Shown here: positions 8,617-37,597 of the stretch, one piece after another
Layout of the letters: each line of letters starts with the position of its first letter
Position numbering within the stretch: position 1 is the first letter of the stretch
Virus record (IMG/VR): IMGVR_UViG_3300040801_002731
Coordinates: 6,972-70,971 of that record
DNA from: a virus
DNA length: 64,000 nucleotides
Strand: one strand, 5' to 3'
The notes under the pieces: model-generated
The model's input: only the letters and a program-made list of their open reading frames with translations
What the model was told of the DNA's origin: nothing
Database searches by the model: none
Position numbers and translations under genes: made by a program

Positions 8617-11322
8617 TTAGCGTTGAAGCAGCGCCGCCAGATCATCGTAGCCGCCGATCAGCTCCTCGCGACCGTTCCGCAGTGCGTAAATCTTCGGGAA
8701 CGTCCACTCAGACCGATCAAAGCCACGATGCGTCAGGAAGCTCCGCTTCTGATGATCCGACAGCAGCTCGGCCTTGCGGTAAGGCGCGCCGATGTCATTC
8801 AGCAGAGCCGCTGCCTTGTTGCACCAGCCGCAGTTCGGGATGCTGTAGACCACAAACTCGGGCTCGGCCTTCGCGGAGACCACCTCCGGCTCGTCCGACT
8901 TGAAATCGACCGGGCAGGCCCCGCCGGCACAATCCACATGCTCGAAGCCCACGTCTTCCTGAACGGTCGCGTTCTGGATGGCTTCCGCGATCATCTCAAA
9001 CTGGGCCTTGGTGACAGGCTCCTCCGGCTGATACTCGAACGCCGTGGTGTCGATCTGCGGCATCACCGAGCAGCAGCGGACCTTGAACTGACCGTCGATC
9101 ATACCGTTCACGAACATCGGGAACGACGTCACGGCCGGGTCATACTTCGCCGTGTAGGAGACCTGGTTGCCGGTCTCGGGCAGCAGCGAAAGGTCTTCGT
9201 TGACGCCACGGATCCAGAAGGTCTCCAGCAGGCGCAGATAGCGATACTGCTCGTCCATGGTTGCTTCGCCGGCCGTGACCAGCTTGTCGCCCATGCCCAA
9301 GGTGCAGATCACCGGCTGCGTCGGGAAGCCGACGACGGTCGTGCCGGAGTAGGTGGTCAGCTTCTTCGTCGGATAGCCCTCGGCCCGGTAACGCTCCACC
9401 AGGGGATCGTCATTGCGGAACTGGACCCAGCGGAGATACTCACGCATCGCCGGCAGGTGGGCGCCTTCGGTGAGCCCCATCAGCTTGCTGGTGGTGCCAG
9501 CAGGCTTGATCGTCCGATTGGTGTGAGGAGCGGTCAAACCCAGCTTCGCGCTGTAGCGCTCGGCCTCATCGGACACCGCTCGGGCGAAACGTGCCAGCGT
9601 CATCCACATGGGCATAGCGTCCGGGTGCGGGCGCACCATCGTCTGTCCGTTGGCGTCCATCATCGTCGCGCCGGACGGGTCCTCTGCGATGATGTCCCGG
9701 AAGCCCAGGCCGAAGCGCGCGAAGATCCACTCGTGCAGACCGGTGATGCCCACGCCGATGCGGTTGGTCCGCTTCACCTCGCGCTCGTAGAGGCAGCGCA
9801 TGGTGTTGGTGCGGATCAGAGCGCGCGTGGCCGCGCGGAAGGCGTCTTCGGCATCGTTGTCGCTCTGCGCGTGGAACGGCACCACGTCCGCGATCACGCA
9901 GTAGCCGCCAAGAAGTAGCAGACTCACTTCACCGCAGGGGTTGGTTACATGCTTGTAGGTCATCGCCGCAACGCGCTGCGCAAGCGCGCGGGCCAACGGG
10001 CGAGTTGCCTCCTCAAGCCCATCTTCGCCGCCGAACTTCACAAATGAGCCGTCCAGGTAGTCGGCCAAACCATCCGTCTTTTCGGTCAGGCGATCGACCA
10101 TGATCAGGCCAGGCTCGCCGGTGCGGTCGTAATAGCTTGCCCAGGCGACGGCCGCGAACACGCGCCACGCATGAATGTCCAGGTCGGTCAGGCCATCAGC
10201 GGCCAGGCCCGCCACGAACCAATCTTCGATGTCATCGAAGAAGATCGGCGTTGAGCCGTGAAAGCGCACGTCCAGGGCCTGCTCGAACAAGCCGGCCTCA
10301 ACCAGCATGTCCCGGATCCGCGTCACCCCGTTGCGAAACTCGGCGTCCACGGTCACGCTGTTGTTGGCGCTCCACAGGAAGCCGCCGCGCTTGACCGCGA
10401 TGAAGTCGAAGATGGTCTCGTCGCGCCAGGTCTTGGTCGCCATGCGAGCAGCACGACGGGCACCGCCCACAAGGACGCACTCGGCCAGATAGTGGTCGGC
10501 ATACATGGCGGCGCGCCAGGGCTCCATGCCGGCATCGCGCAGTCGCGCCAGGTTTTCGACCGCCTTCATCATCGGACCAGGCCCGCTCGCCGGGCGGTTC
10601 TGCATCCCCTTGATTGGCGCGCCGTAGGGGCGCACGTCGGAGAAGTCGACCAGCAGCACATGATCTCGCTTGCGCTCGAACGCCATGCGCTCCAGCACCT
10701 CAATGGCCCGAGCCCATCCTTCTCGGCTGTCACCAACGAGGTGATGCACGATTTCCGAGCCGGCATACAGGTGCTCGGCGTCACGGCGGGTCAGGTAGCC
10801 GGAGATGCGCCCGGCCTGAACGTCGGCATGTCCATGCTCGATGATCGGCACCACGATGGGCATGTTGTTCAGATCAGCGATCTCCACCAGGGCGTCGTCA
10901 TAGGCAGTTCCGACGCCGCTCCCGTTCAGCAACAGGCGGTAGGTGAGGCAGCGCATGGCGGAGGTGGAACAGTTGGTGAACACCTCCTGCGGACGACCAG
11001 GCTGCGTTTCGTCCCCGTGTTGCAGGTGCCGGCCGCTCATCAGCAGCGATGCCTGACGCAGATGGTGACGCATGGACAGGCGCTCGGCGTCCTCGGTCGA
11101 GCGCACGGACGGATCGGTGTGATCGCGCAGCAGCGCGGCGTTGCCCAGGGCAACACGTTCGGCAACTTCGGCCCAGGTTTCGTGGCGTTCCCGACCGGTC
11201 CAGTCCTTGATCTTGCGGTTGACGGTGCGATCAGCGACGGCCTGGCCCATGCCGGGGAAATAGGAGCGGGCAGGGGTGTCCGTCACCGATGGGGCGGTGC
11301 TGGGAGGCATCGGATGCTCCAT
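8617..11322 (-). CDS. nrdJ: Class II (AdoCbl-dependent) ribonucleotide reductase with C-terminal glutaredoxin domain
   Basis: NCSTS, VLVGGARRAA, TNPCGE, IKPAGTTS, CAGGACP tail, then YSIPNCGWC...TFPKIY...IGGYDDL. Confidence 0.88.
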   Translation of the reverse strand: MEHPMPPSTAPSVTDTPARSYFPGMGQAVADRTVNRKIKDWTGRERHETWAEVAERVALGNAALLRDHTDPSVRSTEDAERLSMRHHLRQASLLMSGRHLQHGDETQPGRPQEVFTNCSTSAMRCLTYRLLLNGSGVGTAYDDALVEIADLNNMPIVVPIIEHGHADVQAGRISGYLTRRDAEHLYAGSEIVHHLVGDSREGWARAIEVLERMAFERKRDHVLLVDFSDVRPYGAPIKGMQNRPASGPGPMMKAVENLARLRDAGMEPWRAAMYADHYLAECVLVGGARRAARMATKTWRDETIFDFIAVKRGGFLWSANNSVTVDAEFRNGVTRIRDMLVEAGLFEQALDVRFHGSTPIFFDDIEDWFVAGLAADGLTDLDIHAWRVFAAVAWASYYDRTGEPGLIMVDRLTEKTDGLADYLDGSFVKFGGEDGLEEATRPLARALAQRVAAMTYKHVTNPCGEVSLLLLGGYCVIADVVPFHAQSDNDAEDAFRAATRALIRTNTMRCLYEREVKRTNRIGVGITGLHEWIFARFGLGFRDIIAEDPSGATMMDANGQTMVRPHPDAMPMWMTLARFARAVSDEAERYSAKLGLTAPHTNRTIKPAGTTSKLMGLTEGAHLPAMREYLRWVQFRNDDPLVERYRAEGYPTKKLTTYSGTTVVGFPTQPVICTLGMGDKLVTAGEATMDEQYRYLRLLETFWIRGVNEDLSLLPETGNQVSYTAKYDPAVTSFPMFVNGMIDGQFKVRCCSVMPQIDTTAFEYQPEEPVTKAQFEMIAEAIQNATVQEDVGFEHVDCAGGACPVDFKSDEPEVVSAKAEPEFVVYSIPNCGWCNKAAALLNDIGAPYRKAELLSDHQKRSFLTHRGFDRSEWTFPKIYALRNGREELIGGYDDLAALLQR

Positions 11323-34924: not shown

Positions 34925-35851
34925 TCAGTGGGATAGGTAAATTTTCGAGTCCGTCGGGGCCAAGCTGGGTTGCAGCACAACGCCTCGTTCGTGGACCCTT
35001 ACATTGGCCGCCGGGTAAACCGCCAGGGCATGTCCGAGATTGCGTGCAAACTCAGGCTTGAAGTGCTTCAGTTGGCGCAGACCGCCACCGAATTGCCCGA
35101 ACAAAGCAGGCCAGCCGAGATCAAGCGGCTTGTCGAGGATATGAAGGCGCCAGGCGAGCCAACAGTAGATATCCAGGGCCATCGGCTTGCTCGCCAGCTC
35201 GCGCACGCCGGCCTCCAGCAGCGGCACCGGATGCTGGACAAGGCTGGCATAGAACATTTCGTTCAGAACCACTTCCTCGTTCCAGAGCGCGAGCTGGCGC
35301 GCGTCGGTCGAGGTCATCAGGATCTCGTCATCGACGAAGCTGCCGTTGTGCCGATGCTGAGTCTTCACGCCGTCCTTCTCGTGCGCAAGGAAGAAGGTCA
35401 GCTTGCAGGCCGAGATACGCCGGGCCTGCCGTCGGACTTCGCCATAAGCCGACCCGCCGGTGGGCACGCCCATGTTTTGAAGCCACTGCGCCATTGAGCC
35501 GCCCAGCTCCACGCGCCGGCTGCCCGTCTGTTTCGCTCTCGTCTGGAGATAGATCAGGATCATACGGGCCTTCGAGCCCGCCGGCAGACCGACCGGGGTC
35601 TCACCGTCTTCCTCCATGCCGCTTTCGATCAGCAGGGTGACGTTGGCACCGGTGCGGCGCCAGATGGTTTCCTTGGGCGTGCGGAGAGGAAGGGAGGTCT
35701 GAGAGAAGCCGGAATAGATCAGGTTCAGTCTGCGGTGATCGTCCTCAAGAACGCGCGCGGCCGAATCGACCAAGTGCCGCTGGTCGATGTCTACAAGCTC
35801 CTTCGCCTTCTCTCGGCCATGAGCGAGGATGAGGCTGTGTAGATCACCCAC
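34925..35851 (-). CDS. repA: Plasmid replication initiator RepA (RepA_C / IncW-like family)
   Basis: YSGFSQTSLP, GLPAGSKARMILIYLQT, QARRISAC, LWNEEVVL..FY.SL..HPVP, LDIYCWLAWRL; GGAG RBS and GTG 35851. Confidence 0.88.
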   Translation of the reverse strand: MGDLHSLILAHGREKAKELVDIDQRHLVDSAARVLEDDHRRLNLIYSGFSQTSLPLRTPKETIWRRTGANVTLLIESGMEEDGETPVGLPAGSKARMILIYLQTRAKQTGSRRVELGGSMAQWLQNMGVPTGGSAYGEVRRQARRISACKLTFFLAHEKDGVKTQHRHNGSFVDDEILMTSTDARQLALWNEEVVLNEMFYASLVQHPVPLLEAGVRELASKPMALDIYCWLAWRLHILDKPLDLGWPALFGQFGGGLRQLKHFKPEFARNLGHALAVYPAANVRVHERGVVLQPSLAPTDSKIYLSH

Positions 35852-35887
35852 CAGGAAACTCCGATCTCGCAAACCCTCAAGAGCAAA

Positions 35888-36318
35888 TCATCCACATGCT
35901 CGGAAGTCCAGTCGCCAGTTTCCGACCGAACTATTAGGGTTAGGTTTTTAGTTTATATGGAACAGGGTCGGGAACTGGCGAGGGATAACTCGATTCGCCT
36001 GTGGATAACCCCCGAGTCGGTCGGAAACTGGCGAACATCCGGTCGGGAACTGGCGAACTCAGCCTGTGGATAACCTGCTCGGTCGGAAACTGGCGAACAT
36101 CGCTTGTGGAAAACTTTTGTGGCCCGAGTCGCAACGGCTGGATATGGGTTTGATGGCACGCGAACGACGGATGTCAGAAATCGGTTCGCCAGTTCCCGAC
36201 CGCTTCGCACAAACGCTAATGCACGAATGCGCAGTAGGGCGATTTCGCTAGGGCGATTTTGGGACGTTTGTCGGCGCAATATACGACCGGCACCATTCAA
36301 AGCTCGCCAATTTCCGAC
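35888..36318. repeat. Plasmid origin: iterons plus DnaA boxes
   Basis: GGTCGG(A/G)AACTGGCGA direct copies at 35966, 36019, 36041 and 36081; inverted copies near 35912, 36185 and 36304 (degenerate); TGTGGATAA at 36000 and 36065, TGTGGAAAA at 36105, TCATCCACA at 35888. Confidence 0.9.
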
Positions 36319-36362
36319 TGAGCGCATAATCTACCTTTTGCGCTCAGTTTTGAGGGGTGAAT

Positions 36363-36731
36363 ATGCGAATCGTCCTGTCGAAAGCCATCATTAAAGATGC
36401 GGGTCGCGCGCAAGGAGTCGTTTTGATGGTGCCCTTTCCGCCGGACCTGCCCAGCCCAGGCCAAATGGAAGAGGGCGAATTAACGAATGCGCAACCTCAC
36501 GAAATCGCTGCCGCAACGGAGATTGTGCGTGACCATCTGCCCGACGAGCTGATCATGCGCCACGTTGAGGTCGCGTTTTTGAAACGCCAGAACGCAGAGG
36601 GAATGCAATGGCGCGGCGCCATCATGTTTCATCTGGCGTGCTATGTGATGGGCGGCCGCTTCTACAAGCCCGGCACGCGCTGCCCCGACTTCCTGCATCT
36701 GACCTGGCGCTTTCCGCGCGTGGAGTTCTAA
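36363..36731 (+). CDS. Orphan protein between the origin and the mini-array
   Basis: GAGG RBS, ATG 36363; stop abuts a terminator; no recognised motif. Confidence 0.55.
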   Translation: MRIVLSKAIIKDAGRAQGVVLMVPFPPDLPSPGQMEEGELTNAQPHEIAAATEIVRDHLPDELIMRHVEVAFLKRQNAEGMQWRGAIMFHLACYVMGGRFYKPGTRCPDFLHLTWRFPRVEF

Positions 36732-36761
36732 AACAAAAGGCGGCCCGAAGGCCGCCTTGTT
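36732..36761. terminator. Intrinsic terminator closing the mini-array (minus strand), convergent with the plus-strand ORF
   Basis: AAGGCGGCC-CGAA-GGCCGCCTT; on the minus strand a TTCG loop followed by TTTTGTTTT. Confidence 0.85.
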
Positions 36762-36872
36762 CAATGAGGCCGGGGAGGTCGGAGTCTCCCCGGAAGAGCC
36801 GAAGTCAGTTGTTTCGCCGACCTAGCTTGCGCTTGCTTCAATGAGGCCGAGGCGCCGAAGCACCTCGGAAAT
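36758..36872 (-). CRISPR. Cas-less mini-CRISPR array (2 repeats, 1 spacer) with type I-G-like repeats
   Basis: Repeats ATTTCCGAGGTGCTTCGGCGCCTCGGCCTCATTGAAGC (36872-36835) and TCTTCCGGGGAGACTCCGACCTCCCCGGCCTCATTGAACA (36797-36758); 37-nt spacer; covarying stems. Confidence 0.8.
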
Positions 36873-36931
36873 GGCCGAAGCCATGAACGACAAGCGCGCT
36901 TGCAGGGTTACACTGGCATACCAGGAGAGAC

Positions 36932-37597
36932 GTGTCAATGCCCCGTCAAGGTCGTCAAGCCCAGACCCTCGATCCCCAGAAACACCTGCCGCTGCTGCTC
37001 GCCGAATGCGACAAGAGCCGCTACCCGCACCGTGATCGAGTGATCGTTCTGCTCTCTCTGCGCGCCGGGCTGCGGCGCATGGAGATCGCCGGCCTGAAAC
37101 GCCGACACGTCATGGATGCCTCTGGCGGCATCGGCAGTCACATCAACCTGGAGGACAAAATCTGCAAGCAGGGCTCGGGCGGCCGAGTGCCTATTCACCC
37201 CGAACTCCGCGAGGCGTTGGCCGAGCTGCTCCGAAAGGTGCCGGGACAGCCTCATTGGCCTCTGATTCTGTCGGAGCGTGCCGAGACGGCCGCGACGGGC
37301 CGCAGATCGACAGCGGGCGCGTTGACCAGGCCGGCACCAATGGAGGAGCCCTATCACATGCGGGCCGATGCCGTTGGGTATCTGTTCTGGCGGCTCTACA
37401 AGAAGGCGGGGCTGATCGGCTGCTCGTCGCACTCTGGCCGCCGCACATTCGGCACCCTGGCGGCGCGGCGCGCCATGAAGACGCCGGGCGGTTCGATCAG
37501 GGACGTGCAGGTCCTGCTGCGCCACAAGAACCTCGCCACGACCCAGAAATACATCGAGGCCAACAGCGAGGTTCACGAGGCGCTGATTGACTTTTGA
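36932..37597 (+). CDS. Tyrosine recombinase, catalytic domain only (resolvase/integrase)
   Basis: RAGLRRMEI, K, HSGRRTF, LRH, TQKY catalytic residues; AGGAG RBS; start GTG 36932 or ATG 36938. Confidence 0.92.
   Translation: MSMPRQGRQAQTLDPQKHLPLLLAECDKSRYPHRDRVIVLLSLRAGLRRMEIAGLKRRHVMDASGGIGSHINLEDKICKQGSGGRVPIHPELREALAELLRKVPGQPHWPLILSERAETAATGRRSTAGALTRPAPMEEPYHMRADAVGYLFWRLYKKAGLIGCSSHSGRRTFGTLAARRAMKTPGGSIRDVQVLLRHKNLATTQKYIEANSEVHEALIDF

Follow-up and report, generated by a model that had tools for sequence, protein, structure and literature searches.

What does a stretch of about 150 nt, made of two repeats, one spacer and a terminator, do beside the replication origin of a phage-plasmid? 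The stretch lies in an IMG/VR virus genome of 106,503 bp, estimated to be 96% complete, that was sampled from a microbial mat; below, 'the window' is the whole 64,000-nt stretch of this genome that was analyzed. The first-pass annotation, drawn from the letters alone, had described a mini-CRISPR with a single spacer and its own terminator, close to the plasmid origin and without cas genes. We asked whether the repeats belong to a CRISPR family, how the unit reached this place, and what RNA it could make and for what use.

Layout of the unit

On the minus strand, positions 36873-36758 hold two direct repeats with a spacer between them, and a strong intrinsic terminator follows directly (Table 1). 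The repeat-spacer-repeat order on this strand was thus as described before, with borders correct to within 1 nt (the spacer has 36 nt), and the terminator placed directly after repeat B was found again, on the same strand, by a terminator scan, which set it at 36758-36737. The unit occupies a gap of 200 nt between a plus-strand orphan ORF and a short tyrosine recombinase gene. Just to the left lie a RepA_C replication gene (34925-35872) and the origin; the proximity to a plasmid origin is real, the repA/ori region being ~400 nt away. DNA contigs of the same sample agree with positions 36639-36851 with zero differences.

Table 1. Coordinates, in the window, of the unit, its predicted products and its neighbors
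Feature	Position	Strand	Basis or remark
Accessory insertion, 575 nt	36356-36930		orphan ORF and mini-array; blastn synteny with G001
Orphan ORF, 124 aa	36357-36731	+	converges on the mini-array's terminator
Intrinsic terminator	36729-36758	-	terminator scan and sequence; GC-rich 9-bp stem, UUCG loop, T-tail
Repeat B	36758-36798	-	8-bp stem CCGGGGAG/CUCCCCGG, 8-nt loop, then CCUC and degenerate tail AUUGAACA
Predicted mature crRNA, 77 nt	36766-36842	-	handle, guide and repeat B 3' hairpin; predicted from geometry
Spacer (guide), 36 nt	36799-36834	-	between repeats A and B
Predicted 8-nt 5' handle AUUGAAGC	36835-36842	-	published Csb2 cleavage and invariant CCTC-ATTGAAGC tail of natural repeats
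Repeat A	36835-36873	-	9-bp stem CCGAGGUGC/GCGCCUCGG (one U.G pair), UUCG loop, then CCUC and 8-nt handle AUUGAAGC
Leader hairpin ATGGC-UUCG-GCCAU	36871-36884	-	abuts repeat A
Short tyrosine recombinase	36938-37597	+	PF00589, phrog_216; neighbor, outside the unit

The window contains exactly two copies of the 13-nt block that the repeats were said to share at their 3' ends, CGGCCTCATTGAA; they are 77 nt apart, and the remainder of the 106,503-bp genome has none. Repeats A and B differ only in the apical region and in one compensatory stem pair (CCGAGG/CCTCGG versus CCGGGG/CCCCGG).

Several features distinguish the minus strand from the plus strand. The minus-strand hairpins fold at -17.6 kcal/mol (repeat A, 9 bp including one U.G pair, with the UUCG loop) and -16.6 kcal/mol (repeat B); the plus-strand hairpin of repeat A is interrupted and weaker (-14.8 kcal/mol), and the U.G pair and UUCG tetraloop of hairpin A are present on the minus strand only, as had been noticed. 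For the 211-nt unit the fold had z = -3.9 on the minus strand versus -2.6 on the plus strand. The T-run of the terminator is strong on the minus strand only. The hexamer CTTCGG occurs four times in 204 nt at the unit, compared with 0.47 per kb on the same strand genome-wide, which makes this the densest cluster in the genome; the leader hairpin is part of it.

A CTTCGGC(C) string had been reported before both repeats. We considered the leader and the spacer as paralogous units; the shared CTTCGG(C) before each repeat was their sole significant likeness, and with it removed the likeness had p = 0.11. A third, degenerate repeat was not found in the leader by the Rfam scan at E up to 10.

The window and the rest of the 106.5-kb genome hold no cas genes, in agreement with the earlier description; when ORFs from 17 I-G loci were compared with the genome, one spurious match was found (18 residues, E 5e-4). 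The orphan ORF has no match in Pfam or PHROG and zero homologues among 5.8 billion proteins. Its GC content by codon position (0.65/0.40/0.70) is coding-like, and its ESM model is poor. Going by its position alone, it may be a candidate anti-defence gene.

Repeat family and type I-G assignment

Both repeats were matched by the Rfam family RF01330 (CRISPR-DR16) in a scan of the whole 106.5-kb genome: repeat A with 27.7 bits (E 1.1e-5) and repeat B with 25.5 bits (E 5.3e-5). Neither reaches the gathering score of 35 bits, because their loops are enlarged (inserts of 10 and 12 nt versus 8). All DR16 consensus positions outside the loop are matched, and both repeats are canonical wherever natural repeats are conserved. 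The uniqueness of the 13-mer, together with the DR16 matches, rules out a chance repeat. Matches of repeat B plus terminator to other Rfam families (SorX, 22.5 versus 46.6 bits; Pseudomon-groES, 24 versus 50) were far below threshold and of a generic hairpin-plus-terminator kind.

Natural arrays were sought by the 3' 18 nt of the repeat in one genome per prokaryotic species. Many were found, across many phyla including Alphaproteobacteria, with a period of 72-73 nt. In 31 bacterial loci such arrays adjoin a full-length Cas4g/Cas1g fusion, and the repeat family is therefore of type I-G, as the first-pass annotation had predicted. In one of these loci (L075) Cas4g/Cas1g scored 770 bits on NF049935, and the adjoining Csb1/Cas7g scored 73 bits on TIGR02570. 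The supplement of PMC10651486 likewise types this repeat family as I-G.

The likeness to natural repeats is close: the 5' 11 nt and 3' 20 nt of repeat A are identical to natural I-G repeats (L099 and L174). An alignment of 54 natural repeats showed a 7-bp stem, a variable loop and then an invariant CCTC followed by ATTGAAGC. The fourth stem pair is G-C in 29 of them and A-U in 16; since both variants are natural, the compensatory difference between A and B, which is real, is the natural polymorphism of the family. The spacer length falls inside the natural range (35-37 nt), and the degenerate 3' end of repeat B resembles terminal repeats of natural arrays. The spacer's folding is ordinary (41st percentile of 1,294 natural I-G spacers), which rules out an unusually structured spacer.

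It had been argued earlier that the divergence of the repeats favours a regulator or a decoy. That argument did not hold: the divergence is limited to the apical loop, which natural arrays also vary, and, with the conserved positions and the spacer length canonical, it does not discriminate between functions.

How should such a unit be classified? It is not a canonical CRISPR-Cas locus, as there are two repeats only, their apical parts are different and the 106.5 kb contain zero cas homologues. Nor is it a solitary repeat, as a second repeat stands 36 nt downstream; A and B are <90% alike, so that the mini-array rule of SRUFinder might count each of them singly. It does have what defines a viral mini-array, a spacer between host-type repeats in a virus without cas genes. 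There is very little doubt, in our opinion, that a phage-plasmid without cas genes here carries a repeat-spacer-repeat unit belonging to the type I-G family.

Accessory insertion and likely host

The carrier is a phage-plasmid, and the closest relative found is a complete 91-kb element (G001), about half of whose DNA aligns, at 72% identity. Homology to G001 stops at 36355 and restarts at 36931, with synteny preserved to the left and to the right, and only 33 nt lie between these points in G001. No copy of the CRISPR repeat is present in the 91-kb genome of G001, and four more distant relatives had zero DR16-like matches near the recombinase. In the relatives the recombinase still adjoins the replicon, and CRISPR repeats are absent there. 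Conservation of the arrangement in related phage-plasmids, which the first-pass annotation had looked to, was thus not observed in any of the five related loci. We characterize the unit as accessory cargo rather than backbone, because G001 is without the insertion and the relatives are without the repeat; as the property of an accessory cassette, its absence from relatives is not evidence against a CRISPR origin. Searches of phage and plasmid records for related DNA, and of viral and metagenome collections for a second copy of the A and B repeat variants, found none.

The recombinase of G001 (P0005), annotated by NCBI as that of Roseospira marina, is 80% identical to the one beside the unit, and the microbial mat habitat fits Roseospira. 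The probable host is Roseospira or one of its relatives within Rhodospirillales. A Roseospira MAG carries an array of the DR16-like I-G family along with Cas4g/Cas1g (767 bits), Cas2 and Cas7g; in the GTDB family of Roseospira, Cas4g/Cas1g was above the cut-off in 9 of 61 sampled genomes, with Cas7g present in all five of the five tested. Given a relative of Roseospira type and I-G systems in Roseospira and its family, a host with a type I-G system is plausible.

In the Roseospira MAG, a module of cas4g/1g, cas2 and array stands alone on its contig (L190), beside a gene for a c-di-GMP phosphodiesterase, and Cas7g is on another contig; this reflects either a true split between adaptation and effector modules or breaks in the assembly.

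Between origin and recombinase we also observed a 41-nt hairpin element (window 36315-36355; L003 2921-2960) that is 90% identical between the element and G001 amid diverged surroundings. It could be the terminator of a minus-strand ORF (35953-36327) or a recombinase site.

The same short recombinase adjoins a replication gene in further contigs of 37-109 kb (L179/L180 and L181; L180 has 98,845 bp and L181 108,934 bp). The gene order cobT, repA, recombinase, ligase is kept in L179/L180; L181 has an RPA-type initiator and ParA instead. This suggests a Rhodospirillales phage-plasmid family with exchangeable replicons. A 92-kb contig labelled Azospirillum sp. with a related recombinase carries an sRNA of the suhB/mmgR type (L183 5491-5569, plus strand; RF00519, 43 bits, gathering score 41).

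Predicted processing and proposed mechanism

In the type I-G system of Thioalkalivibrio (10.1101/2022.08.08.503147), the 36-nt repeat has a 7-bp stem, Csb2 cuts 4 nt 3' of the stem, the crRNA has an 8-nt 5' handle and the PAM is TTN. Repeats A and B both have this cut-site geometry, in the same orientation: a stem, 4 nt (CCUC) and an 8-nt segment (AUUGAAGC in A, AUUGAACA in B). The stems are longer, 9 and 8 bp. The Csb2-type layout with an 8-nt handle, as proposed in the first-pass annotation, therefore matches the published geometry, by which the predicted cut in repeat A would fall between 36843 and 36842. Natural I-G arrays have repeats of 36-37 nt, identical within an array, and adjoin cas4/1-cas2; the repeats of the present unit have 39 and 41 nt with enlarged loops, are unlike each other and stand without cas.

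A single crRNA requires hairpin A including the handle, and hairpin B including its CCUC; all of these are canonical. It has no need of the repeat B handle (AUUGAACA), and this is the part that is degenerate. Judged from the sequence, such a pattern speaks for a capacity for processing that was retained, and not for decay.

The reading that we prefer, with middling confidence, is that of a virus-borne I-G mini-array without cas, transcribed, cut by the host Csb2 and loaded into the host Cascade as one guide. Transcription, processing, loading and target are inferred; the proposed steps are as follows. The mini-array would have been gained within the 575-nt accessory cassette between plasmid origin and recombinase gene. 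Transcription of the minus strand would stop at the unit's own terminator and yield a pre-RNA with two Csb2-type hairpins. The host Csb2, a Cas5-Cas6 fusion, would cut 4 nt 3' of each stem, leaving one crRNA of 77 nt, in which the AUUGAAGC handle is followed by the 36-nt guide and by repeat B's hairpin. The host I-G Cascade (Cas7g, Cas8g and Csb2) would then load this crRNA, so that the element would pick the guide and pay for no Cas protein.

Two uses of the guide can be ranked. We place cleavage of a competing mobile element first, tentatively, given the full-length guide and the canonical handle. That the guide represses a host promoter by pairing with it in part, as Cracrs do, is a possibility that we rate slightly lower; it comes second on account of the terminator-capped design and the accessory neighbourhood.

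Searches for target, promoter and RNA

The spacer was compared with phages, plasmids and PAM-adjacent sequence of I-G cas loci, as the first-pass annotation had advised, and zero targets were found. In the genome of the element itself the best match had 15 nt with one mismatch, in accordance with the absence of a self-target noted earlier, and the best match in G001 was 22 of 36 positions. Phage and plasmid records gave matches only at E of 1 or more. No match was found in viral contigs either with the full guide (every 6th base free) or with its 5' 25 nt, and metagenome contigs contained zero protospacers. In I-G loci totalling ~976 kb, nine of them from the family of the probable host Roseospira, there was no TTN-PAM-anchored match of at least 9 nt from the 5' end of the guide. 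In the reverse direction, ~1,570 natural I-G spacers had no match longer than 23 nt to the element or to G001.

Upstream of the unit, neither a sigma-70-like site nor a promoter of the phage's GCCCAA-N9-GCTATA class was found; transcription might also reach the unit by read-through of an XRE gene (37962-37600). The single metatranscriptome of the sample contained no contig over the mini-array region, which is weak evidence.

Alternative explanations

These negative results bear first on the possibility that the unit is an inert relic: the end of a host I-G array, with its last spacer and degenerate terminal repeat, captured by recombination and without function. The searches for promoter, target and RNA were all negative, the unit is unique in the genome and absent from relatives and collections, and the degenerate 3' end of repeat B is typical of natural terminal repeats. 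However, neighbouring repeats of natural arrays share stem and loop, whereas the apical parts of A and B differ completely. The positions conserved in the family are intact and the sole stem difference is compensated, a pattern of selection and not of decay; also, a dedicated terminator abuts repeat B, and UUCG tetraloops are enriched on the strand predicted to be transcribed. We therefore consider the relic unlikely.

A function as RNA could also be had with no use of the guide. As an RNA anti-CRISPR decoy, similar to Racrs, the unit would offer hairpins that soak up the host Csb2 and Cas7g into useless subcomplexes, and the spacer would be a linker. Racrs mimic repeats and reside in viral genomes that have no cas, and I-G solitary repeats of IMG/VR appear in the supplement of PMC10651486. 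The hairpins are hardened by the UUCG loop and longer stems, and the unit sits in an accessory cassette with a small orphan ORF, near an HTH gene. The guide had no target in all searches; this is weak evidence, as most real spacers have no database matches either. For a decoy, however, one repeat would do; the unit has a pair of them, canonically spaced, together with a guide of canonical length and a canonical handle exactly where a crRNA needs one. We find the decoy unlikely too, and very slightly less probable than the relic.

Some phages integrate into CRISPR repeats, and a DNA-level site, either an attachment site for the tyrosine recombinase or a place of homologous recombination into host I-G arrays, would resemble them. 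The unit lies directly upstream of the recombinase gene and its hairpin stems are short inverted repeats, but we regard this explanation as very improbable, because the 80% identical recombinase of G001 does with no such repeats in its 91-kb genome, the recombinases that stand beside replicons in relatives fit a role in plasmid resolution, and the U.G pair, UUCG loops and terminator, being RNA features specific to one strand, would be useless in DNA.

Comparison with known systems and other viral I-G units

That viruses exploit host Cas proteins by means of mini-arrays or repeat mimics is already established in general. The traits that are the unit's own are a phage-plasmid carrier, two non-identical and individually canonical repeats, UUCG-stabilised hairpins and an immediate terminator.

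The viral mini-arrays described by Medvedeva et al. 2019 (PMC6858448; reviewed in PMC11656645), which depend on the Cas proteins of the host, resemble the unit in having one or two spacers, host-type repeats and no cas. In those mini-arrays the repeats are identical to the host's and the spacers mostly hit related viruses; in the present unit, which is of type I-G and on a phage-plasmid, the apical parts of the repeats differ and the guide has no target in the relative G001.

The Racrs and solitary repeats of Camara-Wilpert et al. 2023 (PMC10651486) are likewise repeat mimics in viruses without cas, and the I-G solitary repeats of IMG/VR in the supplement share the tail GGCCTCATTGAAGC. Racrs are single repeats without a guide; the present unit is a repeat-spacer-repeat with a guide of canonical length, and it was not found in the part of the supplement that was searched.

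CreR/crlRNA mini-arrays (10.1101/2023.03.03.530964) and Cracr (10.1101/2024.10.29.618823) resemble the unit in having degenerate repeats, a guide, a rho-independent terminator and phage anti-defence neighbourhoods. The guides of those RNAs base-pair in part with promoters of cas or toxin genes beside a PAM, and in phages the copies have often been shortened; the present guide is full-length and has no such match in ~1 Mb of I-G loci. The main texts of these two reports do not mention I-G.

As a small, self-terminated unit with stabilised hairpins, it would make a natural single-guide cassette for I-G Cascade, and with it one could test directly how much loop variation Csb2 accepts. The unit shows, besides, that a variable site next to the replicon of phage-plasmids houses such cassettes, and this site is a useful place to seek anti-defence cargo. 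To our knowledge, I-G has received the least study of all type I systems, and phage-encoded RNAs that counter or hijack it have yet to be characterised.

In 2.9 million viral contigs, scanned for the exact pattern, repeat-spacer-repeat units of this I-G family turned up in only four other contigs, representing three elements. A phage mini-array of this kind comes from IMG/VR (L029 5400-5490, L030 1180-1270). It has a first repeat with a loop enlarged to 22 nt, a 37-nt spacer, a canonical repeat and, after ~50 nt, a terminator hairpin. As in the present unit, the order is repeat-spacer-repeat in an intergenic gap with a terminator hairpin after it, and the guide past the canonical repeat starts with AAGC. 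The differences are an unrelated phage backbone and the ~50 nt before the terminator, a stretch that may represent a second guide.

The guide in the window starts by reiterating the last four bases of the repeat (36825-36842, minus strand: GAAGC, then AAGC-GC-AAGC). The same was observed in L029/L030, where GAAGC is followed by AAGC three times, and in L011 (~2430-2450), where GAAGG is followed by AAGG-AAGC.

Reiteration of AAGC or AAGG is present in three of nine viral I-G units, versus 10 of 1,294 natural spacers (0.8%) and none of 39 natural trailers; in the predicted fold of the window, the reiteration junction pairs with the leader. In a host array the AAGC at the end of a repeat follows TTG, a valid TTN PAM. 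One could therefore speculate, as a long shot, that a guide starting with AAGC aims Cascade not at an ordinary protospacer but at the point where repeat and spacer meet, in an array of the host or of a rival element, or else at a host promoter, which would be the first phage-made regulatory or anti-array guide for I-G; if this were true, AAGC/AAGG reiteration would be a design rule of phage I-G guides.

Three viral contigs carry I-G repeats in other arrangements. In L011 (~2380-2520) and L027 (minus strand, ~9330-9450), solitary I-G repeats with the 37-47 nt downstream of them are enclosed by perfect long-range stems of 10 and 13 bp. L006 (minus strand, ~2840-2960) has a permuted I-G repeat: the 3' half with the handle, 39 nt and then the 5' half. 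All three look like alternative single-guide designs that do with no second repeat.
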